DNA of 64,000 bases from an uncultured Ignavibacterium sp. (GCA_964454895.1 CAYVTW010000007.1:12338-76337); one strand, 5' to 3'; counted from the stretch's first letter, positions 13,042-42,923 are shown. Translations and numbers: made by a program. The notes: a model not told the origin generated them from the sequence alone.

Positions 13042-13108
13042 GGTCTCCCAATGGATTCTTCGAAGTATAGAATCTTTAAATCGAAGGATCCATTGGGAAT
13101 TAAAAATA

Positions 13109-22202: not shown

Positions 22203-22664
22203 TTATTCTTCTCTTTTTGTTTTACACTTATCTGGATTTTTACAATATCCGTAAATATGGAAGCTGTGATTTACAGGTGTAAATCCATATTCCTCACATA
22301 TTCTTTCTTGGATTTTTAAGATTTCATTATTTTCGAATTCGACAATTTTACCACAATTCAAACAAATTAAATGATCGTGCTCAGTTACACCTAAACTCTT
22401 TTCATAGCGTGCTTCTTTCCCCATAAAATTATGTTTAGAAAGAAGCCCACAAGCTACAAGTAATTCAAGTGTATTATAAACAGTCGCTCTAGAAATATTA
22501 GATCCCTCATTTTTCATCGCAAGAAAAAGTTCATCGGCGCTAAAATGCATAACTTGTCTAAATGCATATTCAAGTACTTCGAATCTTTCTGGAGTAATCC
22601 GATAAGAACCCTTCTTCAAAAAGTCGGTAAATATTTCGGTTGCGTGAGTAATATTAATTATCAT
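22203..22664 (-). CDS. fur: Fur-family metalloregulator (Fur or PerR)
   Basis: 153 aa with HxH, CxxC x2 (HLICLNCG..GYCKNPDKC) and the DNA-binding helix (SRATVYNTLELL). Confidence 0.85.
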   Translation of the reverse strand: MIINITHATEIFTDFLKKGSYRITPERFEVLEYAFRQVMHFSADELFLAMKNEGSNISRATVYNTLELLVACGLLSKHNFMGKEARYEKSLGVTEHDHLICLNCGKIVEFENNEILKIQERICEEYGFTPVNHSFHIYGYCKNPDKCKTKREE

Positions 22665-22779
22665 TTCAATTATTATTTAGACTAAATCTAATTTAGGCAT
22701 CTAATATATTTTTGTCAAGATTAAACTTTAATCTTTTATTTTTTGTTAAAAATGCGAAATTTGAAAAAAGAGGTTTTAT

Positions 22780-22983
22780 ATGTCAAATACATCTTTTGAA
22801 AAAAGACAAGTCGTCGGAATATCCACAAAAAGCATTTCCGACGCAATCGATTCAGTTGTAAAACAATACAACTCAAAAAATCCAGTTTCCTGGTTTGAAG
22901 TTGTTGAAATTAGAGGAAGAGTAACTCAAACTGGAGAAATTGAATATCAAGTCACAATAAACTTAGGTCAAAAAACAAATTAA
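22780..22983 (+). CDS. Dodecin (flavin-binding)
   Basis: 67 aa MSNTSFEKRQVVGIS..WFEVVEIRG..YQVTINLG. Matches the dodecin signature (..VIEIVG.S..WFEV..IRG..FQVT.KVGF). Confidence 0.8.
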   Translation: MSNTSFEKRQVVGISTKSISDAIDSVVKQYNSKNPVSWFEVVEIRGRVTQTGEIEYQVTINLGQKTN

Positions 22984-22994
22984 ACGGAGGAAAA

Positions 22995-23477
22995 ATGTCC
23001 TTAAAAGTTGGAGACACATACAAAAATTTTACCTTAAAAAATAATCGTTTAGAAAATGTAACCTTGAGCGATTTTGTTGGGAAGAAAAATATTGTTCTGT
23101 TATTTTTCCCATTTGTGAATACTGGTGTTTGCGAAAAAGAACTTTGTCAGACACGTGATAGTCTTGAAGATTATAAAAATTTAGATGCAACAATCTTTGG
23201 AATTAGCGTGGATAGTCCTTTCGCCCAAAAACTCTGGAATGAAAAGTTGAATTTTGGTTTCGATCTACTTAGCGACTTTAACAAAGAGGTATGTCAACTT
23301 TATGGAGTGCTAGATGAGAATTGGCTATCCGAAAAGTTCGGCTACAGAGGTGTGGCTAAAAGATCGGCTTTTGTAATCGATAAAAATGGTATTATTCAAT
23401 ATGCTGAGGTGCTTGACGACCCGGGAAAAGAACCTAATTATGAAAAAATAAAAGAATCTCTTTCCAAACTTGTGTAA
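22995..23477 (+). CDS. Peroxiredoxin (AhpC/TSA/redoxin family)
   Basis: FFPFVNTGVCEKELC contains the peroxidatic Cys in a Prx context. Confidence 0.8.
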   Translation: MSLKVGDTYKNFTLKNNRLENVTLSDFVGKKNIVLLFFPFVNTGVCEKELCQTRDSLEDYKNLDATIFGISVDSPFAQKLWNEKLNFGFDLLSDFNKEVCQLYGVLDENWLSEKFGYRGVAKRSAFVIDKNGIIQYAEVLDDPGKEPNYEKIKESLSKLV

Positions 23478-23546
23478 ACATTTATGAATGCTCATCTCAA
23501 TGATCGATAATTTTTTAAACAATCGTTATTTTTGAAATAAAAAGAG

Positions 23547-24041
23547 ATGGGCATTCATTTCTTAAAATACATTTCAGAAATTTTTCAAATTATTGCAATT
23601 ATATTTTGGACAGGAAGCTTAATAGTGATTGTTTTTATTCTTTATCCTCAAATAAACAGATTTAAAGAGAGTAAAAAAATTATTACACAGATTTTCGTCG
23701 AAAGCATAAATAAGGTCGAATATATTTTAATTATTGCGTTAATTTTATTATGGAGTGGAATATTAATTCATCTTACAACAGCTGCGAGCAATCCTCTAAA
23801 ATCAAAAATGTATATTCTTTATTTGCTTCTTTCAGGAATGATGAGCGTTTTTACTTTGTTGAAAATTTTCTGGATTCAACATACTATCATAAAATCTGAA
23901 AAAAGTCTTCGTTTATTTACACAACATGAACTCAAAAACTCAATTGACAAAAAACTTGATAATTATAATAAAGCCTACTACTTCATATCATTAGTAAACC
24001 TTGTGATTATTTTCACAATAATTTTAATTAACCAATTTTGA
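23547..24041 (+). CDS. Hypothetical membrane protein (about 4 transmembrane segments)
   Basis: Hydrophobic segments. 4-nt overlap with the downstream bcp start. Confidence 0.55.
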   Translation: MGIHFLKYISEIFQIIAIIFWTGSLIVIVFILYPQINRFKESKKIITQIFVESINKVEYILIIALILLWSGILIHLTTAASNPLKSKMYILYLLLSGMMSVFTLLKIFWIQHTIIKSEKSLRLFTQHELKNSIDKKLDNYNKAYYFISLVNLVIIFTIILINQF

Positions 24042-24508
24042 GGTGGACGATGTTAAAAGAAGGAGCAAAAGCACCAGTATTCACTCTTTTAAATCAGGAT
24101 GGAAAGAAAATATCACTAAAGGATTTTCTCGGCAAAAAGGTTGTTCTTTATTTTTATCCAAAGGATATGACCTCCGGTTGTACAAAAGAGGCGTGTGATT
24201 TTAGAGATCACATAAAGTTATTTCATAATAAAGATGTTGTTGTGGTTGGTGTAAGCCCTGACTCAGTTCAGTCTCACAAAAAATTTCAAGAAAAATATAG
24301 TTTACCATTCGATCTATTAAGTGATGAAAGTAAAAAGGTTCTGGAAAAATATGGTGTATGGAAAGAAAAAAGTATGTATGGGAAAAAATACTTTGGAGTA
24401 GAGAGAACAACATTTATTATTGATGAAAATGGGAAGATTAAAAAGATTTTTCCGAAAGTTAAAGTAGATGGCCATATAAAAGATGTCTTAAAAGCATTGG
24501 AAGAATAA
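24038..24508 (+). CDS. bcp: Thiol peroxidase Bcp (peroxiredoxin Q)
   Basis: LYFYPKDMTSGCTKEAC with Bcp length and motif. Confidence 0.9.
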   Translation: MRWTMLKEGAKAPVFTLLNQDGKKISLKDFLGKKVVLYFYPKDMTSGCTKEACDFRDHIKLFHNKDVVVVGVSPDSVQSHKKFQEKYSLPFDLLSDESKKVLEKYGVWKEKSMYGKKYFGVERTTFIIDENGKIKKIFPKVKVDGHIKDVLKALEE

Positions 24509-24512
24509 AAAA

Positions 24513-24980
24513 ATGGATATACCAAATTTAGATCAAAACAAAGTTAAGCTTCTTGCAAATTCAAAAACTTATAAAAATTTACTTGAAGGATTTGCATTAG
24601 AGAGTCAAGCAAATCGTAGATATATATTTTTTGCACAGAAGGCTAAAGCAGAAGGTTTTGAAGAGATTGCAAATGTTTTCTTGGAAACTGCTGAAGGAGA
24701 AGGAGGCCACTCATTAGGTCATATCGAATTTCTATCACCGATTGCTGATCCATTAACAGGAAAACAGCTTGGTGATACCGAAACAAATCTTAAAACTGCT
24801 ATTGAAGGGGAGACCTACGAATTTAGTGAGCTCTACCCTGGGTTTGCCAGAGTTGCTCGAGAGGAAGGATTTGATGAAATAGCAGAATGGTTCGAATTTC
24901 TTGCAAGAGCTGAAAAATCTCACGCGGGAAGGCTACAAAAAGCTCTGGACTTATTGTATGAACTAAAAAAGAAAAAATAG
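24513..24980 (+). CDS. Rubrerythrin-family ferritin-like diiron protein (no rubredoxin domain)
   Basis: ExxH diiron motifs (EGEGGHSLGHIEF..EGETYEFSELYP..). 155 aa. Confidence 0.75.
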   Translation: MDIPNLDQNKVKLLANSKTYKNLLEGFALESQANRRYIFFAQKAKAEGFEEIANVFLETAEGEGGHSLGHIEFLSPIADPLTGKQLGDTETNLKTAIEGETYEFSELYPGFARVAREEGFDEIAEWFEFLARAEKSHAGRLQKALDLLYELKKKK

Positions 24981-25022
24981 TCTCTTCCTCTCATCACAAT
25001 TCAAAATTATATGAGGTTTTAA

Positions 25023-25604
25023 TTGAGAAAGATTGATTATTCGGAAATAATACCTTATAGCGAGTATCTGAAAGTTAGAAAAGAATTTCAAGATAAAATT
25101 ATTAAACTCAAAAAAAATCGAAGAATTCAGATTGGTGAATACATTACTTTTGTTTTCGAAAACAGAGAGACTGTTCTTTATCAGATACAAGAAATGATTA
25201 GACTTGAAAAGATGACCGATGAAAGATTAATCAAAAATGAAATAGAAGTTTTTAACCAACTAATTCCAAACGAAAATGAACTTGTAGCAACCATGTTCAT
25301 TGAAATTTTTGAGAGACATTTAATTAAACCAGTTTTAAATTCATTAGTTGGAATACAAAACAAGATTTTTCTTGAGTTTAATAATGAAGTGATCCCCTGC
25401 ATATTCTATGAAGAAAATATAAGCGAAGGGAAAATTAGCTCAGTACAATATGTTAAATTTATATTTAACGATGAACAAAAAAATAAATTTATAGATCCCA
25501 AGGTCCAGATTAAAATTAAAATAGATCATCCTAATTACAAAGTTGAAGCTATTATTCCAGAAAATATCAAAGCAAGTTTAAGAGAGGATTTAATTAAAAA
25601 ATGA
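25023..25604 (+). CDS. Conserved hypothetical protein (193 aa, TTG start), possibly DUF3501-like and rubrerythrin-associated
   Basis: ORF directly downstream of the rubrerythrin gene. Family assignment is from memory only. Confidence 0.5.
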   Translation: MRKIDYSEIIPYSEYLKVRKEFQDKIIKLKKNRRIQIGEYITFVFENRETVLYQIQEMIRLEKMTDERLIKNEIEVFNQLIPNENELVATMFIEIFERHLIKPVLNSLVGIQNKIFLEFNNEVIPCIFYEENISEGKISSVQYVKFIFNDEQKNKFIDPKVQIKIKIDHPNYKVEAIIPENIKASLREDLIKK

Positions 25605-26011
25605 AAATATATGTAACAAGAAAATCTCACTTTGCAGCAGCTCATAGACTATATAACCCAAATTTTAGTGACGAAAAAAACAATGAAGTCTATGGAATGT
25701 GTAATAATCCATTATACCATGGCCATAACTATGTTCTTGAAGTTACTGTCTGTGGTGAACCAGATCCAGAGACTGGGTACTTAATAGATTTAAAACAATT
25801 GAAAAAAATTATCGAAGAAAAAATTATTAAACATGTAGATCATAAAAACCTGAATCTAGAAGTTGAGTTTTTGAAAGGAATAATTCCAACTGCGGAAAAT
25901 TTAGCTATCGCTTTTTGGAAACAACTCGAGGCTGAAATTCCCAGAGGTAAATTATATTCAATAAAGATTTATGAAAGTGAAAGAAATATAGTTGAATACA
26001 GAGGTGAATAA
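25601..26011 (+). CDS. 6-pyruvoyl-tetrahydropterin synthase family (PTPS/QueD, COG0720)
   Basis: Cx5HGH motif ([11 protein letters not shown]). 136 aa. Stop overlaps the folE start (TAATG). Confidence 0.85.
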
Positions 26012-26577
26012 TGGATATAGAAAAAACAACAAAACTCGTTCGCGAACTTTTAATTCAAATAGGAGAAAATCCAGACCGTGAAGGATTATTAAAAACACCA
26101 GAACGTGTAGCAAAAGCTTATGAGTTTTTAACTCGTGGTTACCAACAAGATGTTCATGAAATCATGAACAAAGCGATTTTCACAGAAAAATATGATGAGA
26201 TGGTGATAGTAAAAGATATCGATTTCTATTCGATGTGTGAACATCATTTACTTCCATTTTTTGGAAAAGCTCATGTAGCTTATATACCTAATGGAAAAAT
26301 CATTGGTTTGAGTAAAATCCCTAGATTAGTAGATATTTTTGCACGAAGACTTCAAGTTCAAGAAAGATTAACTCAACAAATCGCCGATACTTTGAACGAA
26401 TACCTTAAACCCGATGGTGTCGGAGTTGTTATAGAGGCTATGCATATGTGTATGATGATGCGTGGAGTTGAAAAACAAAATAGTATTGCTACAACCAGCG
26501 CAATGCATGGCTCATTCAAAGAAGACGAGAGAACAAGATCAGAATTCTTAACTCTAATAAAATCGAGTCTTAAATAG
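26011..26577 (+). CDS. folE: GTP cyclohydrolase I
   Basis: MCEHHLLPF active-site block. 188 aa. Confidence 0.95.
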
Positions 26578-27299
26578 TGAAAGACGATAAAAAAATAATC
26601 TGGGTAACAGGCGGTTCAAGTGGGATTGGTAAAGCAATCGCCTTTAACTTTGCGAAGATTAATTGTAAAGTTTATATATCCGGAAGAAGAAACTCCGAGC
26701 TTGAGCGGACCATTAAAGAATTCTCTAAAGAAAAGTTAAAAATTAAAGCTATTCCATGTAATGTTGCATCAGAAGTGAATGTGAGTCAAGTTGTAAAAAC
26801 AATAATGAGAGAAGAAGGGAAAATCGATTGCCTCATTAACAACGCAGGAATAACTGTTTTCAAAAATGTAATTGATACATCTAACCGAGAAGCTAAAGAT
26901 ATAATTGATACAAATCTTCTAGGTTCAATTTATTGTACCAAGCATGTTTTGCCTTATATGATAGAACGAAAATCTGGATTAATAATAAATATCAGTTCGT
27001 TTGCTTCAAAAAAAATTTACCCAAAGAGCGCTGTCTATTCAGCATCTAAAGCAGGTCTAAATGCATTTGCTAATTGTTTAAGAGAAGAAGTAAGAGAATA
27101 TGGAATCAAAGTAGTAACCATTCTTCCTGGTGCGACTGAAACACCAATGTGGGATAAGGAGATTAGAAAAAAGGCTTCGGAAAGAATGATGAAGGCTGAC
27201 GATCTTGCGCATCTTGTAGTTTCGGTATTTCTGCAACCAAATAATATAGTTAGTGAAGAGATCGTAGTTCGACCAATTTATGGTGATATAAATGTCTGA
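26577..27299 (+). CDS. Short-chain dehydrogenase/reductase (sepiapterin-reductase-like candidate), GTG start
   Basis: TGGSSGIGKA NAD(P)-binding motif and the YSASK catalytic motif. Confidence 0.85.
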   Translation: MKDDKKIIWVTGGSSGIGKAIAFNFAKINCKVYISGRRNSELERTIKEFSKEKLKIKAIPCNVASEVNVSQVVKTIMREEGKIDCLINNAGITVFKNVIDTSNREAKDIIDTNLLGSIYCTKHVLPYMIERKSGLIINISSFASKKIYPKSAVYSASKAGLNAFANCLREEVREYGIKVVTILPGATETPMWDKEIRKKASERMMKADDLAHLVVSVFLQPNNIVSEEIVVRPIYGDINV

Positions 27300-28005
27300 T
27301 CTTTTAGGAAGAAATGTTTTTATATCTGGAGTGAGTAAAGGAATTGGTAGAGCGATTGCTATTTCACTTGCTAAAGAAGGTTGTAATATTTTTGGCGTAT
27401 CAAGAAACAGAACTGAACTTGAGAAATTGAAAAATGAATTTATTGAATTTAATATCAAGGCAGAATTTTTTTCTGTTGATGTCGGTGATTTTTATGAATT
27501 AAAAGCGACATTGAAGGATCTTCTCTCAAAAACAAAAATTGATATACTTGTTAATAATGCTGGAATTGGTATGTTTAAAAATTTGCTTGATTTTTCCTAT
27601 GAAGAATTTGACCGAGTAGTGAAAACAAATTTGTATGGTGTCTTCAATCTTACAAAATTGATTATACCCTCAATGATTGAAACTCAAAACGGTGATATCA
27701 TCTTCATTTCTTCACTAGCGGGGAAAAATGTTAACGCCGGCAGTTCAGTCTATTCTGCAACAAAATTTGCTTTAACGGGGCTTGCTCATTCTTTGATGCT
27801 TGAAGTGCGTCAATACAATATAAGAGTATGCTTGGTTCATCCAGGTTCAGTTGATACTGATTTGATTGGAAATTTTAATCCAAATATTAATCGAGAAAAA
27901 ATACTAAAACCTATAGATGTTGCCGATGCAATCCTAACATTTCTCAAATTACCTAGAAGAGCAATGCTCTCAGAATTCGAAATCAGACCTACAAATCCAA
28001 AATAA
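27292..28005 (+). CDS. Short-chain dehydrogenase/reductase (second paralog)
   Basis: SGVSKGIGRA NAD(P)-binding motif and the YSATK catalytic motif. Confidence 0.85.
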   Translation: MSDLLGRNVFISGVSKGIGRAIAISLAKEGCNIFGVSRNRTELEKLKNEFIEFNIKAEFFSVDVGDFYELKATLKDLLSKTKIDILVNNAGIGMFKNLLDFSYEEFDRVVKTNLYGVFNLTKLIIPSMIETQNGDIIFISSLAGKNVNAGSSVYSATKFALTGLAHSLMLEVRQYNIRVCLVHPGSVDTDLIGNFNPNINREKILKPIDVADAILTFLKLPRRAMLSEFEIRPTNPK

Positions 28006-32917: not shown

Positions 32918-35686
32918 ATGAAGCATTCAAATACAAACGATAGTAAAAATTCACCTAAAATTGAGAACAACGGCCTATTCAAGCAAGGTGGATTGAAGTT
33001 CAAATATCTTTTCTCAAGAAAAGGGGTACATCCTTTTGATGAAATTGAATGGGAATTACGAGAGGCAAAAATTAACAATGAAAAAGGTCAGGTAGTTTTT
33101 CACCAAAAGGATGTGGAGGTCCCTAAAAGCTGGTCAATGACTGCAACCAATGTAGTTGTATCAAAATATTTTCATGGTCAGATTAACACACCGGACCGAG
33201 AAAAAAGTGTTAAACAATTAGTTGAAAGAGTTTCAAGAACAATTACAAATTGGGGCATTAAAGACGGCTACTTCGAGAGTAACGAAGATGCAGAAGCATT
33301 TTATAGTGAACTAACATATCTTCTAGTTAATCAGTACGGAAGTTTTAACAGTCCAGTTTGGTTTAATGTAGGGATTGAAGAAAAGCCTCAATGTTCTGCT
33401 TGCTTTATCAATTCTGTTGAAGATACGATGGAGTCAATTCTTGAACTAGCAAAAACTGAGGGCATGCTATTCAAATATGGGAGTGGAACGGGCTCAAATT
33501 TGAGTGTTTTACGATCATCAAAAGAACCATTAAGTGGTGGAGGAATGGCATCTGGTCCCGTTTCTTTCATGAAAGGATTTGATGCATTTGCAGGTGTGAT
33601 TAAGAGTGGAGGTAAGACTCGTCGTGCGGCCAAGATGGTAATCTTAAATGTAGACCATCCAGATATAATCGATTTTATTAATTGCAAAGCAGATGAAGAG
33701 AAAAAAGCTCATGCATTGATTCAGATGGGATATGATCCTGGATTTAATGTTCCTGGCGGTGCATATGATAGTATTGCTTATCAAAATGCTAATCATTCCG
33801 TGCGTGTATCCGATGATTTTATGAAGGCAGTTATTGAAGATAAAGAATGGCACACAAAAGCTGTCAAAACAGGTAAAGTATCAGATACATATAGAGCAAA
33901 AGATATAATGGATCAAATCGCACAGGCTGCATGGATTTGTGGCGATCCTGGAATGCAATTCGATACGACAATTAATAACTGGCATACTTGCCCTAATTCT
34001 GGTAGAATCAATGCTAGTAATCCATGCAGTGAATATATGTTCCTAGATGACTCGGCTTGTAATCTCGCCTCATTAAATTTGATGAAATTCCGAAAAGCAG
34101 ATGGTTCTTTTGATATTGAAAAATTTAAATATGCGGTCGATATCTTTATCACAGCACAGGAAATTATAGTTGATAATTCCTCTTACCCAACTAAAGCAAT
34201 CGAGATAAATAGTCATGAGTTTCGTCCTTTAGGATTAGGTTATGCAAACCTCGGTGCATTGCTTATGGCAAATGGGTTAGCTTATGATAGTGATGAAGGA
34301 AGAGCTTATTCCGCTGCAATAACATCAATTATGACAGGGGAAGCATATCGGCACTCTGCAGAGATCGCAAGTAAAATAGGACCATTCAAGGGCTACTATA
34401 AGAATCGTGAGCCATTCTTAAGAGTTATCCAACAACATCTTTCATTTGCAAGAAAAATTGACGGAACTCTAATTCCTATTGATATGTACGATGAAGCAGT
34501 AGCTGTGTGGGAAGAAGCTATTAAACTTGGTGAAAAATATGGTTTTAGAAATGCTCAAGTAACAGTGCTTGCTCCGACAGGAACTATTGGATTTATGATG
34601 GATTGTGATACAACCGGTGTAGAACCTGATATTGCGTTAGTAAAGTATAAAAAATTAGTTGGAGGTGGTGTTTTCAAAATTGTTAACAATACTGTTCCGC
34701 TTGCTCTTGAGAAACTTGGATATGATAGCGAACAAATTGAGCAAATTGTTGCTTACATTAATGCCAATGATACAATTGAAGGTGCACCATATCTTTTAGA
34801 AAAACACCTTCCTATCTTCGACTGTGCTTTCAAACCAGCTAATGGTAAGCGATCAATTCATTATATGGGCCATATCAAAATGATGGCTGCTGTTCAGCCT
34901 TTTCTTTCAGGAGCAATTTCAAAAACTGTTAATATGCCAAATGATGTCACACCTGAAGAGATTAAAAATGCTTATATAGAAGCATGGAAACTTGGACTCA
35001 AAGCAATTGCCGTTTATCGTGATGGTTGCAAATTAACTCAACCATTAAGTACATCATTAAAATCTGATAAGAAAATTAAATCTGAAGAAAAATCTACCGT
35101 AATTGAACAAAGACCAAAAAGAAGAAGATTACCTGACGAGAGACAATCTATCACACACAAATTTAGTATTGGTGGACACGAAGGATATATCACCGTTGGA
35201 ATGTACGAAGATGGAACACCAGGTGAAATTTTTATCGTAATGTCTAAAGAAGGAAGTACAATTTCTGGTGTTATGGATGCATTTGCAACTGCTATTTCTC
35301 TTGCATTACAATATGGTGTCCCATTAAAAGTCCTTGTCGACAAATTTACTCATACGCGATTTGAACCCTCAGGATTTACGAACAATAAACAAATACCAAT
35401 AGCTAAATCAGTTATGGATTATATTTTCAGATGGTTAGCATTGAAATTTTTGCCTGAAGATCAATCTGCATATACTTCAATAGTCGAAACACCAAATGAA
35501 ATAAAACTTGATGAACCCAAAATTCAAAGAAGTGAAAAAGAGACACAAACAATAGAACAGACAGAAAAATTGGTTTTCGTAAGTCAAGCAGATGCACCAC
35601 CATGCCCAGAGTGTGGTTCAATCATGGTGCGAAGCGGTAGTTGTTATAAATGTTTTGAATGTGGTGCTACAAGTGGTTGTTCTTAA
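32918..35686 (+). CDS. nrdJ: Adenosylcobalamin-dependent ribonucleotide reductase (class II, NrdJ) with C-terminal zinc ribbon
   Basis: 922 aa. RNR active-site region (NPCSEY..). C-terminal CPECG..CYKCFECG. GGAG ribosome-binding site upstream. Confidence 0.9.
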   Translation: MKHSNTNDSKNSPKIENNGLFKQGGLKFKYLFSRKGVHPFDEIEWELREAKINNEKGQVVFHQKDVEVPKSWSMTATNVVVSKYFHGQINTPDREKSVKQLVERVSRTITNWGIKDGYFESNEDAEAFYSELTYLLVNQYGSFNSPVWFNVGIEEKPQCSACFINSVEDTMESILELAKTEGMLFKYGSGTGSNLSVLRSSKEPLSGGGMASGPVSFMKGFDAFAGVIKSGGKTRRAAKMVILNVDHPDIIDFINCKADEEKKAHALIQMGYDPGFNVPGGAYDSIAYQNANHSVRVSDDFMKAVIEDKEWHTKAVKTGKVSDTYRAKDIMDQIAQAAWICGDPGMQFDTTINNWHTCPNSGRINASNPCSEYMFLDDSACNLASLNLMKFRKADGSFDIEKFKYAVDIFITAQEIIVDNSSYPTKAIEINSHEFRPLGLGYANLGALLMANGLAYDSDEGRAYSAAITSIMTGEAYRHSAEIASKIGPFKGYYKNREPFLRVIQQHLSFARKIDGTLIPIDMYDEAVAVWEEAIKLGEKYGFRNAQVTVLAPTGTIGFMMDCDTTGVEPDIALVKYKKLVGGGVFKIVNNTVPLALEKLGYDSEQIEQIVAYINANDTIEGAPYLLEKHLPIFDCAFKPANGKRSIHYMGHIKMMAAVQPFLSGAISKTVNMPNDVTPEEIKNAYIEAWKLGLKAIAVYRDGCKLTQPLSTSLKSDKKIKSEEKSTVIEQRPKRRRLPDERQSITHKFSIGGHEGYITVGMYEDGTPGEIFIVMSKEGSTISGVMDAFATAISLALQYGVPLKVLVDKFTHTRFEPSGFTNNKQIPIAKSVMDYIFRWLALKFLPEDQSAYTSIVETPNEIKLDEPKIQRSEKETQTIEQTEKLVFVSQADAPPCPECGSIMVRSGSCYKCFECGATSGCS

Positions 35687-35757: not shown

Positions 35758-36462
35758 TTAATCTGCATTAGTTAAGGAGTAAACTTCGCTTAGCCTTCGA
35801 GCACCAACAAATCTTCTCTCATAATAGCCCGATGCCATTGAACTAACAATTACACCATACTTCGTAGAGGCATGTACAAAATAATTCTCCCACAAATAAA
35901 TACCTACATGACCTGGATTTTGTCTTCTTCGTGTATTGAAAAAAACTAAATCACCAAATTTGAGATTATCTTTTGAAACAGGTTGGCCTAATTTAACTTG
36001 TTCCAAGGTTGATCTTGGTAAATCTATACTTAACGATTCTTGAAATACCAAACGTGTAAATGCGCTACAATCAATTCCTTTTCTTGTGTTTCCGCCAAAT
36101 TTATACGGTGTTCCGAGGTAAGAAATAACTGTCATCAAAAATTTTTCATAATCAGTTGGGATACTATTGGTTGTATCTAATCTACCATACTTTGAGAAGA
36201 AATCTGCTAAATTTTCTATTGGTTTAATTTCTTCTTCTGATGAAATAACTTCTCGAAGTTCTTCTTCCGTAAATTCTAAATCAGTCGCAAATCTCTGAGT
36301 TGTATCTGATGCTTGAGAATTAATTGCTTTAGCTATTCGAAGTGAATCAATAAAAAATTGTTTACCGTTTCCATTTCCATTTGTTTTTGTTGCAAATCTT
36401 ACTGGTCCATAACAAGAAGAAAAAAATAGAATTGCAGTAAAAAGGAAAAGTAATTCTCTCAA
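35758..36462 (-). CDS. NlpC/P60 (C40) peptidase lipoprotein
   Basis: Lipobox (FFSSC). C40 catalytic Cys-His blocks (DCSAFTRLVF..HVGIY). Confidence 0.8.
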   Translation of the reverse strand: MRELLFLFTAILFFSSCYGPVRFATKTNGNGNGKQFFIDSLRIAKAINSQASDTTQRFATDLEFTEEELREVISSEEEIKPIENLADFFSKYGRLDTTNSIPTDYEKFLMTVISYLGTPYKFGGNTRKGIDCSAFTRLVFQESLSIDLPRSTLEQVKLGQPVSKDNLKFGDLVFFNTRRRQNPGHVGIYLWENYFVHASTKYGVIVSSMASGYYERRFVGARRLSEVYSLTNAD

Positions 36463-36480: not shown

Positions 36481-36524
36481 TCAAAAATAAAAAACCTCCG
36501 GTTGATTCTACATCAACGCGGAGG
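36481..36524 (-). terminator. Rho-independent terminator downstream of rpoD
   Basis: Roughly 12-bp stem cctccggttgat/atcaacgcggagg (36495-36506 / 36512-36524) with a 1-nt bulge. An A-run at 36483-36494 on plus gives the U-tract on minus. Confidence 0.65.
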
Positions 36525-36543: not shown

Positions 36544-37401
36544 TTAACCCAAGTAAGCTTTTAAAGCTTTACTTCTTGATGCGTGTCTTAATCGTCTAAT
36601 AGCTTTTTCTTTAATTTGTCTTACTCTTTCCCTCGTAAGGTTAAATTTTTCTCCAATCTCTTCAAGGGTAAGTGAGTGTTCAGAATTTAATCCAAAATAT
36701 AATCTTATAACTTCCGCTTCTCTTTCTGTCAATGTTGATAAAGCTCTCTCTATTTCTTGCTTCAATGATTCTTTCATCAATCCATGATCTGGAGCAGGTT
36801 GAGCATCGTTGCTAATAACATCGAGTAGTCTATTCTCTTCACCTGGTGCAAATGGTGCATCAACAGAGACATGTCGACCAGAGATTTTCAAAGTATCAGC
36901 AATCTCATTAATTGGAATGTTCAATTCTTCTGAAAGCTCTTCAGCACTTGGTTCTCTCTCGAATTCCTGCTCAAGGTTACTGAAAGCTTTACCTATTTTA
37001 TTTAATGCACCTACTCTGTTTAGAGGTAATCGAACAATTCTCGATTGTTCTGCGAGTGCTTGAAGAATAGATTGTCTGATCCACCAAACTGCATAAGAAA
37101 TAAATTTGAATCCACGAGTCTCATCAAATCTTTTTGCGGCTTTAATTAAGCCTAAATTACCTTCGTTAATTAAATCTCCTAAAGATAACCCCTGGTTTTG
37201 GTATTGTTTAGCGACACTAACTACGAAGCGAAGATTTGCTTTTACCAGTTTTTCTAAAGCTCTCTGGTCACCTTTTTTAATTCGTTGAGCTAACTCGATT
37301 TCCTCCTCCGAGGTTATTAAATCAACTCGACCAATTTCTTGTAAATATTTATCTAAAGATTGACTCTCACGATTTGTATATTGTTTTGTGATTCTCACCA
37401 T
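36544..37401 (-). CDS. rpoD: RNA polymerase sigma-70 factor (short primary-type, 285 aa)
   Basis: Regions 2-4 conserved (..[18 protein letters not shown].., ..[13 protein letters not shown].., ..[23 protein letters not shown]..). Confidence 0.9.
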
Positions 37402-37403
37402 GT

Positions 37404-37685
37404 TTATCCCTTTAAATTTGTTTCAACATCTATTCTATCAATGATACCAACAATTGAAGCATCAACAGGAGCCATATCAACGGGTAACGGAATGACCGCT
37501 TCAGACGCAGTTATATACATAACTATCTCACCTGGTCCTGCACCAACAGTATCAATAGCAACAATTGGCTCCCCAGTTTTTTCTAGCTTTGAATTTAATG
37601 GTTGTATGAATTGCATTTTTAACGCTTGCAGGGCTGGATACTTTTTAGTAGCCCAAATTGTTCCAATAACTTTAGCAAAAAACAT
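37404..37685 (-). CDS. BMC vertex (pentamer) protein, EutN/CcmL/PduN family (PF03319-like), paralog 2
   Basis: 93 aa [50 protein letters not shown]. Shares the conserved VIGTV..T.K...L.G and VA.D.VGAG.GE.VL blocks. Confidence 0.7.
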
Positions 37686-37984
37686 TAATTCTTTGCTGTC
37701 TCCAATTTTTCTTCTTTAATTACAATATCTAACTTGTCTACGATTGCCATTATAACAGCATCTATTGGTTTGTTCTTGGTGAATGTTGTTTGTCGAGCCG
37801 AAGAACCCGTTGCCACAAGTACCACCTCACCAACACCAGCACCAACGCTATCAACTGCAACTACGAAATTCTTGGTTTCAGAATAATCTAGGTTAATTTG
37901 ACGAACAATCAGAAACTTGGCACCCACCAGATTTTCGTCTTTTCTGGTTGCCCAAACTGTTCCTATTACTCTTCCTAAGATCAA
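37685..37984 (-). CDS. BMC vertex (pentamer) protein, EutN/CcmL/PduN family (PF03319-like), paralog 1
   Basis: 99 aa MILGRVIGTVWATRKDENLVGAKFLIV..VVAVDSVGAGVGEVVLVATGSSARQ..IDAVIMAIVDKLD. Close to E. coli EutN (VAIDNIGAGTGEWVLLVSGSSARQ). Confidence 0.8.
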   Translation of the reverse strand: MILGRVIGTVWATRKDENLVGAKFLIVRQINLDYSETKNFVVAVDSVGAGVGEVVLVATGSSARQTTFTKNKPIDAVIMAIVDKLDIVIKEEKLETAKN

Positions 37985-37988
37985 TTTT

Positions 37989-38381
37989 CTACCCTTTTTT
38001 GTTAATTTTTAGAAGTTTTACATTATTATAATTTAAATATTTTTCTGAATTAAAAGTAGCCAAAACCAACTTGTTCTGAACCGACATCACAACAATTAGA
38101 GCATCCCGCAAGTTCCATTCTTTGTTTAACATTTTTTGCGTTTCAATAATTTCTGCTACTTTTTCAGCGTATCTACTATGAATACCTAGAACTTTGAAAC
38201 CAAATAATAACATATCCGCAAATTTTTTATTTTCAGTTCCTGCGAATTCATAAACTTCAATTGCGTTTATCACAGAAGTAAAACAATCATACTTTTTCAT
38301 TAATTTCATTAAAGTTGATTCCTGATCGCTTGTAATTAGATGATCAACTAATATATCGGTATCAACTAATATTTGTTTCAT
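37989..38381 (-). CDS. PIN-domain protein (VapC-like putative ribonuclease)
   Basis: 130 aa. ILVDTDILVDHL at the N-terminus (catalytic Asp), E in NAIEVYE, D in LRDALIV, and an LATFNSEKY C-terminal motif. 4-nt overlap with the upstream ORF. Confidence 0.7.
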   Translation of the reverse strand: MKQILVDTDILVDHLITSDQESTLMKLMKKYDCFTSVINAIEVYEFAGTENKKFADMLLFGFKVLGIHSRYAEKVAEIIETQKMLNKEWNLRDALIVVMSVQNKLVLATFNSEKYLNYNNVKLLKINKKG

Positions 38382-38626
38382 TTAGTGATTTTTCCCTTCG
38401 ATCTAACAACTCCAAGTGCAATTTCAAGAGGAATCCTTTGTATAGTTGATATCTGTTCAACTGTTTTCTTTGAGATATTTTCTTTCTTACAAATTTCATC
38501 TAGATCAATCAAAAATTTTACTTTAAATTCTCTAGAATTTAATCGTCGCAAGAATGCAATAGCATCATCCGAAAGAATTAATGAATTATTCTCAAGCTTC
38601 GCTTTGAATTCTTTTTCTTCGATCAT
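38378..38626 (-). CDS. Hypothetical 82-aa protein, candidate PIN partner (antitoxin-like position)
   Basis: ORF translationally coupled (ATGA overlaps) to deoB upstream and the PIN gene downstream. No recognisable DNA-binding motif. Confidence 0.45.
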   Translation of the reverse strand: MIEEKEFKAKLENNSLILSDDAIAFLRRLNSREFKVKFLIDLDEICKKENISKKTVEQISTIQRIPLEIALGVVRSKGKITK

Positions 38627-39789
38627 ATAATCTCTCCATAAAAACTTTCTCCTGAGAGATAATTTTCAACACCATAAAAATCACAAACTGTTTTTGCCAG
38701 ATCAGCAAAAGTATTCCTCAATCCTAAATTGATATTTTGTTTCAATTTTTTTCCATACACTAAAATTGGTACGAGTTCTCTTGTGTGATCAGTACCTGGA
38801 AAAGTTGGATCATTGCCATGGTCTGCCGTGATAAAAAGAACGTCATTATTAGATAATGATTGAATTATATCTGGTAAGTAATTGTCAAATTCTTTGAGAG
38901 CATTATAAAAACCTTCAACATCGTTACGATGACCGTAAAGCATATCGAAGTCGACAAGATTCGTCATGATATATGCCGATTTTTCCATTTTGGTATTTTC
39001 AATTGTTTGAATAATTCCTTCTAAATTATTCTTCGTTTTAATCTGGATATCAATATTTCTGTAGGCAAATAAATCATTTATCTTTCCGATACCAATTGTC
39101 TTAATATTGTTTTTCTTTAGAACATCAAAAATTATTTCACCATCTGGCTCTAGTGCAAAATCTTTTCTTCGATGCGTACGGATAAAATTACCGTTCGAAC
39201 CGATGAATGGCCGGGCTATGATTCTACCAACTGCATGTTCACCAATCATTACTTTTTCGCGGGTAACTTTACATATTTCATACAGACGATCTATTGGGAT
39301 TACTTCTTCGTGAGCTGCTATTTGAAAGACAGAATCTGCACTTGTATAAACAATAGGGAAACCTGTTCTAATATGTTCTTCACCAAGCTCTTGTATTATC
39401 TCGGTTCCAGACGCGGCTTTATTTCCAAGAATTCCTTTAAGATTATTCTCTTTCAAAAATTTCTGAATTATTTCATTAGGGAATCCGTTCGGATAAACTG
39501 GAAATTGTTTTTGCGAAATATATCCTCCTAATTCCCAGTGGCCAGTAGTACTATCTTTTCCTTTCGAAATTTCTTTCATCTTCCCAAAACAACCAATAAT
39601 TTCAGGATTCTTTGAGTTTAATTCTACTAGTTTTCCTAAGCCGAGTCTTTCGAGATTAGGTAATTCTATTCCACCAAGAGCTTTAGAAATGTTACCAAGT
39701 GTATTTGAGCCTGTATCATTATAGAGTTCTGCATCTGGAGCATTCCCAATTCCTACACCATCTAAAACTATAACTATTGCTTTACTCAT
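38623..39789 (-). CDS. deoB: Phosphopentomutase
   Basis: 388 aa. The N-terminus MSKAIVIVLDGVGIG and the metal-binding blocks match DeoB. Confidence 0.9.
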   Translation of the reverse strand: MSKAIVIVLDGVGIGNAPDAELYNDTGSNTLGNISKALGGIELPNLERLGLGKLVELNSKNPEIIGCFGKMKEISKGKDSTTGHWELGGYISQKQFPVYPNGFPNEIIQKFLKENNLKGILGNKAASGTEIIQELGEEHIRTGFPIVYTSADSVFQIAAHEEVIPIDRLYEICKVTREKVMIGEHAVGRIIARPFIGSNGNFIRTHRRKDFALEPDGEIIFDVLKKNNIKTIGIGKINDLFAYRNIDIQIKTKNNLEGIIQTIENTKMEKSAYIMTNLVDFDMLYGHRNDVEGFYNALKEFDNYLPDIIQSLSNNDVLFITADHGNDPTFPGTDHTRELVPILVYGKKLKQNINLGLRNTFADLAKTVCDFYGVENYLSGESFYGEII

Positions 39790-39800
39790 ACAACTATCCT

Positions 39801-41630
39801 CTATTTAGATGTTCTAATTTTATCACCACCACTTGCTATAGCTTTGCTCAGAGCTGCCTCAGCTGAGTTAAAGAGAGTTTCTGCTTTAATTATTTTGACA
39901 CCTCCTGAATAACCTATACTTACAGTAATACCTATTTCATTATCATCATATCTTATAAAGTCCCCAGAAATCTTCTGTAAAATCTTTTGACACCAAATAT
40001 AATCACTAGCACTATCTCGATTCAGAAACAATACACCGAACTTTAAATTTTCGAGTCTTCCCAGTAGCATCAATTCCTCTGCTTCTTTGGTAAGAAGTAG
40101 CGATATATGTTTTGCAATTTTTGGAATTATTTTATGAGTATATTTTCTGACTAACTTATCGACTTTATCGACAGATATCAATGCTAAACCAATATGCATC
40201 ACTGTTGTTTTAAATTTTGTTAACTCTTCTTGAACTCTATTCTCAAATGTCTGACGATTTAATAGCATTGTTTCAAGATCTATGCTTAAATAATTCTCAA
40301 GCAAAGTTTTATTGAAAAGATAATCTAGCTGAGATGCAAAATAACTTGATATTTTTTCTATAAGTCTAACATCTTCATCTGAGTAAATTTTTTTCTTTAG
40401 GCTTTCAAGAACCAATGCACCATATATCTGACCATTTGATGTTATTGGTACAATTATTAAAGATCCTTTGATATTAGATTGCAGATTTTTTCTAAATAAG
40501 AAATATTTATCAATACCTGAATCATCAATTCGTATACTTTTATTTTTTTCGAAGGAATAACCTATTAGAGTATCTGGGCTAATATCTACAGATAGGTTTT
40601 CGCCCATATAATCAACAGAGGTTCTATTGACCAATTTCTTTAGTATATAACTTTTTGCAGCATTATCATATAGAACAACACCGAGTACATCCCATGGTAG
40701 TAATTTATCAAGTACGACTATTATTTTTTGAATTAATTTTTTTTCATCAAATTCTTGAGAAGAATTTCCAATCAATTCAATTATTGCATCAAATTTTTGA
40801 TTGGACATTTCAATATTAAACTTCTCATCGTAAATACTAAGAACTAAAGTTATCATTCTTACAAATTTTCCAAGTATAAATATTGTTTCTGGTCCAAAAG
40901 CATCTTCACTTTTACTATCAATTGCTAATACACCAATAATTTTATCATTCAAGTAAACAGGTACAGCAGCTATAGATTTTATTCCAATGGGTGTTGGATA
41001 ATATTTAATTAGATCAGTTTCTATATTCGAATTAATGTTACAAGTATAGATTGGATTTCCACTTCGTATAACTCTACTTATTAAATCTGAACCAATCTTG
41101 TATTTAATTTTTTGAAGATCGTCCACTGCTGATGAGAAGTTGTGGAATATTATTTGTCCCTTATCACTTCGATACCAGAAAAAAATCGCTGAGTGAGCAA
41201 GAAATACCTGTTTGATTACATCTAATGTTTTTTCTAGGATAAAATTAAATTGAACTTCAACACTAGCGCTACCCGGTATAGGTTCAAGAGCAATCCTTCG
41301 ATATTCTGCATTTAAATCTTGTGGTATTAACTTAGAGATTTTTTTGTTTACAATACTTTCCTGTAAATCTATATCCGTTAAAATCTTATCCGTCGGTTCT
41401 TCGGATAATTCAAATTTTTCATCTGTAGTATTTTCACTTTCATCATCTATTGTTACAGAACTTATCTTGTTACTTCCTCCATTTCGAAAAAATATGACAA
41501 AACTGATTAGTATCAAAATTAATGCACTTAAGATAATTTTAATTAACTGTGAATCTATCAGAAATATCCCAACTAGAGGAAGTAGAATTGATAAAAAGAT
41601 TAGAGCTCTTTTGAGATTTACTTTTATCAA
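39801..41630 (-). CDS. Membrane-anchored GAF-domain sensor with a degenerate GGDEF-like C-terminal domain
   Basis: Two N-terminal transmembrane helices and central GAF-like regions. The C-terminus aligns to GGDEF, but the signature reads ENLKF in place of GG(D/E)EF. Confidence 0.7.
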   Translation of the reverse strand: MIKVNLKRALIFLSILLPLVGIFLIDSQLIKIILSALILILISFVIFFRNGGSNKISSVTIDDESENTTDEKFELSEEPTDKILTDIDLQESIVNKKISKLIPQDLNAEYRRIALEPIPGSASVEVQFNFILEKTLDVIKQVFLAHSAIFFWYRSDKGQIIFHNFSSAVDDLQKIKYKIGSDLISRVIRSGNPIYTCNINSNIETDLIKYYPTPIGIKSIAAVPVYLNDKIIGVLAIDSKSEDAFGPETIFILGKFVRMITLVLSIYDEKFNIEMSNQKFDAIIELIGNSSQEFDEKKLIQKIIVVLDKLLPWDVLGVVLYDNAAKSYILKKLVNRTSVDYMGENLSVDISPDTLIGYSFEKNKSIRIDDSGIDKYFLFRKNLQSNIKGSLIIVPITSNGQIYGALVLESLKKKIYSDEDVRLIEKISSYFASQLDYLFNKTLLENYLSIDLETMLLNRQTFENRVQEELTKFKTTVMHIGLALISVDKVDKLVRKYTHKIIPKIAKHISLLLTKEAEELMLLGRLENLKFGVLFLNRDSASDYIWCQKILQKISGDFIRYDDNEIGITVSIGYSGGVKIIKAETLFNSAEAALSKAIASGGDKIRTSK

Positions 41631-42235
41631 ATTGCGCTCTCTCTACTTTCGGAAATTTTTCTCATCACGTAAGATTGAAATTCTCTTTTACCTTCACCTG
41701 ATTTTGCTGAAAAGAAGAAAAAATCTAAACTTAAACCACTTGTTAAATTCCTTACCAATTTATTCAATTTAGTTCTTTCTGATTGGTTTAATTTATCAAC
41801 TTTAGTAAACAAAATGCAATATGGGAAATTTAAGTTTATAACATAATCTCTCGCAATCTCATCTAGCTTAGTAAAAGGGATCCTTGCATCCATAAGATGA
41901 CACACAAGAAAAATTTTAGGACTTAGAGCAAAATAATCTTGTATCAATTTTGAAAATCTGAAACTATCCTCTTTACTAGTTGATGAATATCCAAAGCCTG
42001 GTAGATCAACTAAATAAAATTTTTCATCTACTACATAGAAATTGATTGATCGAGTTTTTCCAGGAGTTTGACTGACCTTAGCAAAATTTTTTTTGTTTAA
42101 AAGTGCATTAATCAATGAGGATTTCCCGACATTAGAGCGACCCATGAATACAATTTCGGGTAAATTTTGGGTTTTCAACTGTTCCAATGTGTAAACCGTC
42201 CGTTCTAAACGCACATTTTCAAAATTTATTCTCAT
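41627..42235 (-). CDS. engB: Ribosome biogenesis GTPase EngB (YsxC/YihA)
   Basis: GRSNVGKSSLINALL G1 motif. 202 aa. Confidence 0.85.
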   Translation of the reverse strand: MRINFENVRLERTVYTLEQLKTQNLPEIVFMGRSNVGKSSLINALLNKKNFAKVSQTPGKTRSINFYVVDEKFYLVDLPGFGYSSTSKEDSFRFSKLIQDYFALSPKIFLVCHLMDARIPFTKLDEIARDYVINLNFPYCILFTKVDKLNQSERTKLNKLVRNLTSGLSLDFFFFSAKSGEGKREFQSYVMRKISESRESAI

Positions 42236-42279
42236 AAATTACTATTGCTTTTATGTACACAAGGACATTACAAATAGAA

Positions 42280-42316
42280 ACAAAAAAAGGAGTAGTTAGA
42301 ATATTCCAACTACTCC
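42280..42316 (-). terminator. Rho-independent terminator downstream of rplQ (end of the ribosomal super-operon)
   Basis: 9-bp stem ggagtagtt/aactactcc (42289-42297 / 42308-42316). An A-run at 42282-42288 on plus gives the U-tract on minus. Confidence 0.6.
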
Positions 42317-42338
42317 TAAAATAGTAAAATGAAAAGTC

Positions 42339-42923
42339 TTATCTATCTTGTTTATTATTTTCAGAAGTTGATTCAGCTTGATCTGTCTTAGAACTTTTTG
42401 AAGCATCAACATTTTCTTCTGACTTTACATCGTCTTTTGCTTCTTCAGTAGTTTCTTTTTGTTCAAGAGTTTGTTCAGTTGTCTTTGTCTTCGTTTCTTG
42501 AGAAGTCTTTTCAGTTGTGACTATATCTGATTTTTCTTTTTTCTTTGTTGCTTTAACCTCACCCTCATTATAATCAACAAGTTCTAAAATCGCCAGATCA
42601 GCACCATCACCTCTTCTTGATCCGATTTTTACAACACGGGTATATCCACCCGGTCTCTCTCCAACTTTAACAACAATTTCATTAAATAATTCTTTTAAAA
42701 TTTCACGGTCTTTAATAAATCTGGCAATATATCTTCTGGCTGGTATATCACCTTTGCGAGCTTTTGTTATTAAATGTTCGACGAAAGAGCGAGCTTCTTT
42801 AGCTTTTGCAACAGTAGTTTTAATTTTTTTATGTCTAAACAAAGCAGTTGCAAGATTAACTAGTAAAGCTTTTTTATGACTTGAGGTTCTCTTTAGTTTT
42901 CTACCTTTTACTGCATGTCTCAT
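42339..42923 (-). CDS. rplQ: 50S ribosomal protein L17 with a roughly 75-aa low-complexity K/T/E-rich C-terminal extension
   Basis: N-terminus MRHAVKGRKLKRTSSHKKALL. 194 aa total. Confidence 0.9.
   Translation of the reverse strand: MRHAVKGRKLKRTSSHKKALLVNLATALFRHKKIKTTVAKAKEARSFVEHLITKARKGDIPARRYIARFIKDREILKELFNEIVVKVGERPGGYTRVVKIGSRRGDGADLAILELVDYNEGEVKATKKKEKSDIVTTEKTSQETKTKTTEQTLEQKETTEEAKDDVKSEENVDASKSSKTDQAESTSENNKQDR

Follow-up and report, generated by a model that had tools for sequence, protein, structure and literature searches.

Why does the gene for the primary sigma factor of a bacterium stand at the end of a chain of genes that also encodes a ribosome-biogenesis GTPase, a putative sensor, a phosphopentomutase, a PIN-domain protein and two vertex proteins of a bacterial microcompartment (BMC)? 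This question is raised by a 64,000-nucleotide stretch of DNA from an uncultured Ignavibacterium sp. (GCA_964454895.1, CAYVTW010000007.1:12338-76337), the whole of which is hereafter called the window, where such a chain runs along the minus strand at positions 36544-42235. A reading made from the sequence alone (the sequence-only reading) had proposed two explanations: a growth-state or nucleoside-sensing circuit that tunes the expression of the primary sigma factor (σA), or the remnant of a sugar-phosphate or nucleoside-utilising microcompartment locus. In this study, we analyzed the chain and compared it with related loci. Our results suggest that it is probably neither, and that the most plausible explanation, held with some reserve, is a vertically inherited housekeeping operon of Ignavibacteriales that ends in rpoD. 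Two functional BMC vertex genes of the scattered FRAG1 type would be part of this operon, with deoB and a domesticated pair of VapBC-like genes as its optional passengers.

Eight minus-strand open reading frames (ORFs) were found in the chain, all at the coordinates given by the sequence-only reading, and the gene order from engB to rpoD and the seven junction sizes were exactly as it had claimed. Calculated from the ORF coordinates, the junctions were -4, +11, -4, -4, +4, -1 and +2 nt, with 11 nt as the largest gap between chain genes in the window. The start of EutN2 overlaps the stop of EutN1 by 1 nt, and rpoD starts 2 nt past EutN2. Every gene name was borne out by Pfam and NCBIfam (Table 1), save that of the 82-amino acid ORF, for which no family scored above threshold. 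Two genes were assigned TTG starts. The TTG of the gene for the GAF/degenerate-GGDEF protein (GAF gene) overlaps the engB stop codon as TTGA, and it is supported by an N-terminus that aligns with relatives only from that codon. The TTG of EutN1 is supported by an N-terminus canonical for BMC-P, the EutN/CcmL family of vertex proteins.

Terminators had also been claimed at both flanks, and they were confirmed by folding energies and by T- or U-runs. Upstream of engB, the terminator of rplQ consists of a hairpin at 42317-42288 followed by a T-run (-19.0 kcal/mol, z -6.2). Past rpoD, a hairpin at 36524-36495 (-18.2 kcal/mol, z -4.6) is followed by UUUUUUAUUUUU, and the U-run extends to about 36483. 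A terminator scan inside the chain gave no terminator-like site. Since the compressed junctions lie between two terminators, it appears most likely that engB to rpoD are transcribed as a single polycistronic mRNA and that overlapping genes are translationally coupled, in agreement with the single-operon appearance noted by the sequence-only reading. The ribosomal protein L17 encoded beyond the upstream terminator (window 42339-42923, minus strand) has 194 amino acids, including a C-terminal tail of about 75 residues rich in K, E and T, and with 154.6 bits, under the cutoff of 280, it is a partial match to the NCBIfam model named 'L17 sunset domain variant'.

Short spacing alone is ordinary operon behaviour. 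Tight or overlapping junctions were also frequent elsewhere in the operons of the window, which is how unrelated genes placed side by side by chance could look in a compact genome. We compared the chain with relatives, where loss of the arrangement had been named as a sign of such a juxtaposition. Near-identical strains carried an identical chain. A scan based on rpoD, with one genome per species, gave 80 loci from Ignavibacteria, Bacteroidota, Balneolales and relatives. The order found in the window recurred in six of these 80 genomes, the metagenome-assembled genomes (MAGs) L007 and L009-L013, and was complete in five of the six. It reads rpoA-rplQ-engB-GAF/GGDEF-deoB-EutN1-EutN2-rpoD-NlpC, and it was kept despite identities to the window's proteins of only 39-45% for engB and 27-31% for the GAF protein. 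The taxonomic labels of these MAGs vary (Melioribacteraceae, Ignavibacteria or Ignavibacteriaceae, Bacteroidota, Chlorobiaceae). The chain was also carried by Melioribacteraceae 4301-Me (GCA_041538185.1), apparently an isolate genome because its source name has no 'MAG:' tag. In all relatives with enough flanking sequence engB followed rplQ, and divergent homologues of EutN2 (70-76% identity) and of the PIN protein lay in the same chain in every context examined. Across Ignavibacteriales the arrangement was kept at 27-59% protein identity of the flanking genes; the rpoD protein was 74-87% identical to that of Ignavibacteria and Bacteroidota genomes. The chain is more than chance because it is conserved in relatives, and chance juxtaposition, refuted by this conservation of order across deep divergence, is extremely improbable.

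Another 80 loci were obtained by scanning metagenomes with EutN2, and in these genes were counted only where the flank sufficed. Downstream of EutN2, rpoD was present in 70 of 70 testable loci, and EutN1 stood upstream of EutN2 in 68 of 68; where a distance filter had flagged either gene, inspection found it present. The GAF gene was found upstream in every testable locus (31/31), and an NlpC/P60 gene lay past rpoD in all but one (38/39). The counts for deoB (31 of 39, absent from eight) and for the PIN gene (23 of 51) were incomplete. Therefore, deoB and the pair formed by the small ORF and the PIN gene are optional, and the invariant core is GAF-...-EutN1-EutN2-rpoD-NlpC, with the GAF gene in its degenerate-GGDEF form. 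The eight loci that had lost deoB from the operon (L117, L133, L134, L147, L149, L155, L160 and L168) kept EutN1-EutN2-rpoD intact, with 440-680 nt between the GAF gene and the PIN gene or EutN1. Among lineages, the junctions in GAF-deoB-(small ORF-PIN)-EutN1-EutN2-rpoD were mostly -11 to +25 nt, and the engB-GAF gap was about 60-85 nt in most relatives; the lineage of the window has the most compact version of the chain.

Outside these lineages the neighborhood of rpoD was different. Balneolales kept deoB-rpoD without BMC-P genes, and in one of two loci checked, that of a Balneolia MAG, the ORF before deoB-rpoD had a sub-threshold GAF match. In a Chloroherpetonaceae MAG a GAF-GGDEF gene stood directly before rpoD, and in other Ignavibacteria lineages the neighbors of rpoD were unrelated genes. 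From these neighborhoods, the BMC-P pair seems to have been inserted into an older synteny of GAF, deoB and rpoD, or retained within it in particular lineages. A search for EutN remnants in lineages that lack the pair gave matches at chance level only.

EutN1 and EutN2 are 37-38% identical to each other, and each consists of a single PF03319 domain, ~90-100 amino acids long, that matches profile positions 1-83 of 83 and scores far above the cutoff of 25 bits. The best solved relative of EutN1 was the shell pentamer 5V74 of Haliangium ochraceum (HO), with an E value of 1.8e-24 and 48 of 86 residues identical (~56%) without gaps, and the best PDB matches of EutN2 were 4I7A and 5V74 (E values of ~1e-13 to 1e-12). 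The ratio of nonsynonymous to synonymous substitution rates (dN/dS) was calculated against strain L004, which has ~91% nucleotide identity. It was 0.000 for EutN1, 0.017 for EutN2 and 0.011 for rpoD, and 0.07-0.16 for the other chain genes. Moreover, EutN1 was 66-86% identical across lineages in which rpoA was only 51-54% identical. Because the dN/dS values of the pair match that of rpoD, EutN1 and EutN2 are, as judged by selection on their sequences, functional shell-vertex paralogues and not decaying remnants.

FRAG1 has been described as a scattered, shell-protein-only type of BMC locus that is most prominent in Ignavibacteria (Sutter et al. 2021, PMC8217296). It consists of a BMC-P triplet and two BMC-H genes elsewhere, of which one has a long C-terminal extension; PduS/PduT homologues are often present as well, and neither enzymes nor encapsulation peptides have been identified for it (PMC8217296). 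Satellite loci were defined by Axen et al. (2014, PMC4207490), and Melioribacter roseus was reported to have seven BMC-P genes at five loci, with four of these being satellite or satellite-like (PMC4207490). BMC-H has been reported in the FRAG1/MIC4 loci of Ignavibacteria (PMC4207490, PMC8217296).

The window resembles these loci in several respects. Its BMC-P genes form a lone pair, away from BMC-H and signature enzymes; the homologues carry Ignavibacteria names, as expected for the host, and more than one BMC-P paralogue is present. The closest shell relative of the pair is of HO type, and HO also has a BMC-P triplet. Unlike FRAG1, only two of the three expected BMC-P paralogues are present at the locus, and no third was found in the window or the fetched flanks. 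By tblastn with PduA, CcmK2, HO BMC-H and both EutN proteins, we searched the window together with the loci of the two scans, 80 from rpoD and 80 from metagenomes (flanks of ±7-10 kb), and found no BMC-H and no third BMC-P. The pair agrees with FRAG1's satellite shell genes, a membership that would follow from the literature on the phylum. FRAG1 and satellite loci are already known as types, and the invariant adjacency of BMC-P and rpoD is a new feature; a link between the two is not mentioned in PMC8217296, PMC4207490 or the other literature searched.

Could this adjacency itself be functional? Since the pair adjoins rpoD in all 70 testable loci and is under constraint like that of rpoD, two such readings have to be considered. 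In one, a constitutive FRAG1 organelle would keep its vertex proteins in proportion to σA. In the other, BMC-P, together with the co-resident VapC-like nuclease, would have a shell-independent role in the expression of σA or in RNA polymerase. We consider a functional link of either kind quite unlikely.

We also examined whether deoB ties the pair to sugar-phosphate metabolism. The HO and sugar-phosphate-utilising (SPU) compartments have been proposed to catabolise nucleic-acid sugars through the DeoC aldolase (PMC8217296). If deoB and BMC-P were functionally linked, FRAG1 would handle (deoxy)ribose phosphates and the block would be an enzyme-bearing piece or remnant of it. The proximity of HO to EutN1 among solved structures is consistent with this, as are the 31 loci in which deoB lies directly upstream of the pair, so that here, as in SPU and HO loci, a pentose-phosphate enzyme stands beside BMC-P genes. 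Unlike in those loci, neither BMC-H nor DeoC (PF01791), RpiB (PF02502) or aldehyde dehydrogenase was found in the 64-kb window or in the fetched flanks. The deoB product is full length (residues 1-385 against positions 3-393 of 396 of NF003766), and the profile alignment gave no terminal extension that could serve as an encapsulation peptide. The block can do without this gene. The link is weakened because deoB and the pair each occur without the other, in Balneolales and in the eight deoB-less loci, respectively, and the strongest constraint in the chain, which falls on the BMC-P genes, argues against decay. Thus, we regard a functional link between deoB and BMC-P as unlikely. The same evidence, namely the dN/dS values of the pair, the separability of deoB and the missing enzymes and BMC-H, counts against the sugar-phosphate microcompartment remnant envisaged by the sequence-only reading. 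This remnant is also countered by the catalogued scattering of the shell genes of this phylum over several loci, as in FRAG1.

The second optional element is the pair of small ORF and PIN gene. An orthologous pair, with a small ORF of 82-98 amino acids followed by a PIN protein of 124-130, was found at the same site in L011, L087, L091, L093, L094 and L095, and in all contexts examined it was preceded by deoB (or the GAF gene) and followed by EutN1. Purifying selection acts on both genes of the pair, with dN/dS values against L004 of 0.149 for the 82-amino acid ORF and 0.110 for the PIN gene. A profile search with the PIN protein gave 633 relatives, and every source name given was Ignavibacteria-like. 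The AlphaFold2 model of the PIN protein had a mean confidence (pLDDT) of 91.8. In a fold search of the PDB its best matches were VapC toxins with template modelling (TM) scores of 0.75-0.80, and the top 30 were mostly VapC/FitB (0.72-0.80); a PDB profile search with the PIN alignment gave no sequence match. Of the catalytic acids, D9 and E42 were invariant and D93 was conserved in at least 90%, and the fourth position was N or Q in all aligned lineages.

The small ORF has a conserved C-terminal Q-x-(I/L)-P...K-G motif and an N-terminus that varies across lineages. It matched only five small-protein clusters among 1.84 billion representatives, and the family search gave no Pfam match above threshold (the sole match, His_biosynth, was sub-threshold) and no meaningful PDB profile match. 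Its single-sequence AlphaFold2 model was of low confidence (pLDDT 68.8). It thus appears to be a lineage-restricted family to which no recognisable fold could be assigned. By eye the small ORF had seemed an AbrB/MazE-type antitoxin; this was rejected, as hhalign against an AbrB/MazE alignment gave a probability of 0.1% and no credible Pfam match or meaningful PDB match was obtained. A recent mobile insertion, suggested by the absence of the pair from most genome-scan loci, was ruled out because many divergent lineages have it at this very site. Where a lineage has a gap here instead, a search for remnants of the PIN gene or the small ORF gave matches at chance level only. At L095:4847-6663, deoB is broken into two ORFs, and small ORF and PIN form one fused ORF of 220 amino acids; both are probably due to assembly indels and not to biology.

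These results suggest that the pair is VapBC-like in layout and, according to the model, in fold. As in VapBC type II toxin-antitoxin modules, a small upstream gene overlaps the PIN gene by 4 nt, the PIN protein has the VapC fold and three catalytic acids are kept. Unlike VapBC, which is sporadic and mobile, the pair is fixed at one position inside a housekeeping operon in many lineages. It also lacks the fourth acid, and no antitoxin DNA-binding domain (AbrB, RHH, Phd or HTH) was found in it.

PelD-type receptors combine transmembrane segments, a GAF domain and a degenerate GGDEF domain. The protein of the chain is similar to them in its membrane anchor, its GAF domains and its inactive GGDEF domain, and it differs in having two GAF domains and no RxxD I-site. 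The degeneracy described by the sequence-only reading was evident, since RLENLKF aligns with RYGGEEF of PleD in place of the GG(D/E)EF motif of diguanylate cyclases. The GGDEF domain was equally degenerate in nine relatives, and the RxxD I-site was absent at the aligned position from the protein of the window and from the relatives. By sequence, the domain is catalytically degenerate. With the I-site missing, PelD-style binding of cyclic di-GMP is unsupported.

The position of this gene bears on the proposed σA circuit, in which the GAF sensor, deoB and the PIN nuclease would sense growth or nucleoside state and tune rpoD, for example through processing of the mRNA by PIN. A GAF/GGDEF-type protein is encoded upstream of rpoD not only in all 31 testable Ignavibacteriales loci but also in the Chloroherpetonaceae MAG, and the sub-threshold GAF match upstream of deoB-rpoD in the Balneolia MAG points in the same direction. 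The PIN protein keeps three catalytic acids under purifying selection, and the rpoD operon of E. coli is regulated by internal processing. However, rpoD is unchanged although about half of the lineages have no PIN gene and a fifth have no deoB. The GGDEF domain, which has neither active site nor I-site, offers no signaling output that could be named, and synteny beside a ribosomal cluster is commonly conserved without functional coupling. We consider a regulatory circuit of this kind improbable, and the location of the GAF gene could reflect either a functional link or simply an ancient synteny.

We next consider whether the chain is a single transcription unit in all lineages. A scan for E. 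coli-type sigma-70 promoters gave 25 sites against 32 expected by chance; without an established consensus for Ignavibacteria promoters, such a scan has low power. TAnnTTTG, the -7 motif of Bacteroidota, occurred four times against four expected and was absent from the 1,800 nt upstream of rpoD, again with low power. A motif search before rpoD in 13 lineages, also of low power, found none consistently placed. Rfam gave no known RNA family in the chain or in the gaps of the relatives. By contrast, lineages that lack the small ORF/PIN pair have 130-265 nt of non-coding sequence before EutN1. At L010:7153-7411 and L089:8438-8701 a non-coding stretch of ~260 nt stands between deoB and EutN1 where the small ORF and the PIN gene would otherwise be. 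It is 72% identical in the two lineages and includes blocks that match almost perfectly, compared with 53% identity at third codon positions of the flanking genes, and the block AATTCTGATTAGTGGCRGGAAAA was found only in L010, L089 and L090. This stretch may be a promoter and leader for EutN1-EutN2-rpoD. In the Balneolia MAG L040 (L040:7805-8005), where the BMC-P pair is absent, the deoB-rpoD gap holds a textbook promoter-like site of Bacteroidota type, TTTG-N21-TATATTTG, so that rpoD there has a promoter-like site of its own.

The non-coding stretches and the promoter-like site are arguments for a division of the chain, in which EutN1-EutN2-rpoD, with or without nlpC, would be a sub-operon with its own promoter before EutN1 or the small ORF, engB, GAF and deoB would be separate, and compaction would be secondary. 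The engB-GAF gap of most relatives, which in some contains TAnnTTTG, can be counted in its favor. The chain of the window itself gives little room for it, as its gaps never exceed 11 nt, no terminator-like site lies within it and TAnnTTTG is missing upstream of rpoD. Internal promoters would in any case supplement read-through, as in the E. coli rpsU-dnaG-rpoD operon. We consider such a division possible but doubtful; partly independent transcription is not exclusive of a single operon.

The rpoD terminator separates NlpC/P60 from rpoD in the window; in other lineages the two genes are coupled, and in L094 and L095 they overlap by 4 nt. The sequence TATTTTTG, which matches TAnnTTTG, lies at window 36482-36489 (minus strand), 20 nt ahead of the start of NlpC/P60, and shares positions with the T-run of the rpoD terminator, which suggests that terminator and promoter overlap here. 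Beyond NlpC/P60 and convergent to the operon, window 32918-35686 (plus strand) encodes a ribonucleotide reductase of class II that carries a TSCPD domain (922 amino acids). Its homologue at L094:9084-12375 has 1198 amino acids, possibly with an inserted element such as an intein.

Table 1. Genes of the rpoD chain, its terminators and its downstream neighbor, by position in the window
Feature	Positions	Strand	Evidence or remark
Intrinsic terminator at the end of the rpoA-rplQ (alpha) operon; upstream limit of the chain	42278-42317	-	13-bp stem and T-run
engB/ysxC, ribosome-biogenesis GTPase, first gene of the chain	41627-42235	-	TIGR03598, 186.9 bits (cutoff 124)
GAF-GAF-degenerate-GGDEF protein, membrane-anchored, 609 aa	39801-41630	-	Pfam GAF_2, GAF, weak GGDEF
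deoB, phosphopentomutase	38623-39789	-	NF003766, 518 bits
82-aa ORF in antitoxin position	38378-38626	-	Overlaps deoB and PIN by 4 nt each
VapC-like PIN-domain protein	37989-38381	-	Pfam PIN, 34 bits
EutN1, BMC-P (EutN/CcmL) paralogue 1	37685-37984	-	PF03319, 110.5 bits
EutN2, BMC-P (EutN/CcmL) paralogue 2	37404-37685	-	PF03319, 93.7 bits
rpoD, short Bacteroidota-type primary sigma factor, 285 aa	36544-37401	-	Sigma-70 regions 1.2, 2, 3, 4
Intrinsic terminator past rpoD; downstream boundary in this lineage	36483-36524	-	Hairpin and U-run
NlpC/P60 peptidoglycan endopeptidase, downstream neighbor	35758-36462	-	PF00877, 103 bits

Elsewhere in the window, two further groups of genes were noted. 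At 22203-28005 a Fur gene is followed, on the plus strand, by tightly packed genes for AhpC/TSA, a 164-amino acid ORF, a second AhpC/TSA, rubrerythrin, DUF3501, 6-pyruvoyl-tetrahydropterin synthase, GTP cyclohydrolase I and two short-chain dehydrogenases, which looks like an oxidative-stress and pterin cluster. At 10970-15100 (minus strand) there are three consecutive SurA/PPIase-like genes, of which the ORFs at 12244-13227 and 13109-15100 overlap by 119 nt, and one start is probably mis-assigned.

The mixed content of the chain would need no common pathway if the chain is a heterogeneous housekeeping operon ending in the sigma gene. Such an operon would directly follow the ribosomal-protein and rpoA-rplQ cluster, with engB upstream wherever the contig extends that far and with a backbone of the GAF/degenerate-GGDEF gene, the two BMC-P genes, rpoD and NlpC/P60. 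In the lineage of the window its junctions would have been compressed to -4 to +11 nt between two terminators. The expression of BMC-P would be tied to σA by position and would presumably be constitutive. Similar arrangements are known from the macromolecular-synthesis operon rpsU-dnaG-rpoD of E. coli and from dnaG-sigA of B. subtilis. As in rpsU-dnaG-rpoD, the sigma gene is distal in a heterogeneous housekeeping operon that opens with a translation-related gene, and internal signals may modulate its expression. Unlike that operon, the chain contains neither rpsU nor dnaG and its gene content is wholly different; the analogy is one of logic and not of membership.

Several points weigh against the housekeeping operon with embedded FRAG1 genes as we describe it. 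Co-transcription is read from spacing only. No BMC-H was found in the 64-kb window or in ~175 fetched loci, and neither BMC-H nor a third BMC-P lies within ±7-10 kb in ~100 related loci or elsewhere in the window; the assignment to FRAG1 leans on the literature of the phylum. Some relatives have the gaps of 130-265 nt before EutN1, one of them more conserved than synonymous sites, and in some lineages hit coordinates leave gaps of ~30-110 nt before rpoD. Because of these gaps, internal promoters are likely in the lineages that carry them and may exist in the window as well. With these points taken into account, we still favor the housekeeping operon, as stated at the outset.

FRAG-type microcompartments have been catalogued, with no function, enzymes or regulation assigned to them. 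Within the operon proposed here, the VapBC-like pair would act as a fixed component and not as a mobile cassette, and the GAF/degenerate-GGDEF protein would represent a very old synteny with rpoD. The value of these findings is that of a lead, and current ideas are not overturned by them. The adjacency of the vertex genes to rpoD offers a testable handle on the FRAG-type compartments. It predicts that vertex-gene expression would be constitutive and linked to σA, unlike that of substrate-induced metabolosomes, and strain 4301-Me is apparently a cultured carrier of the operon.

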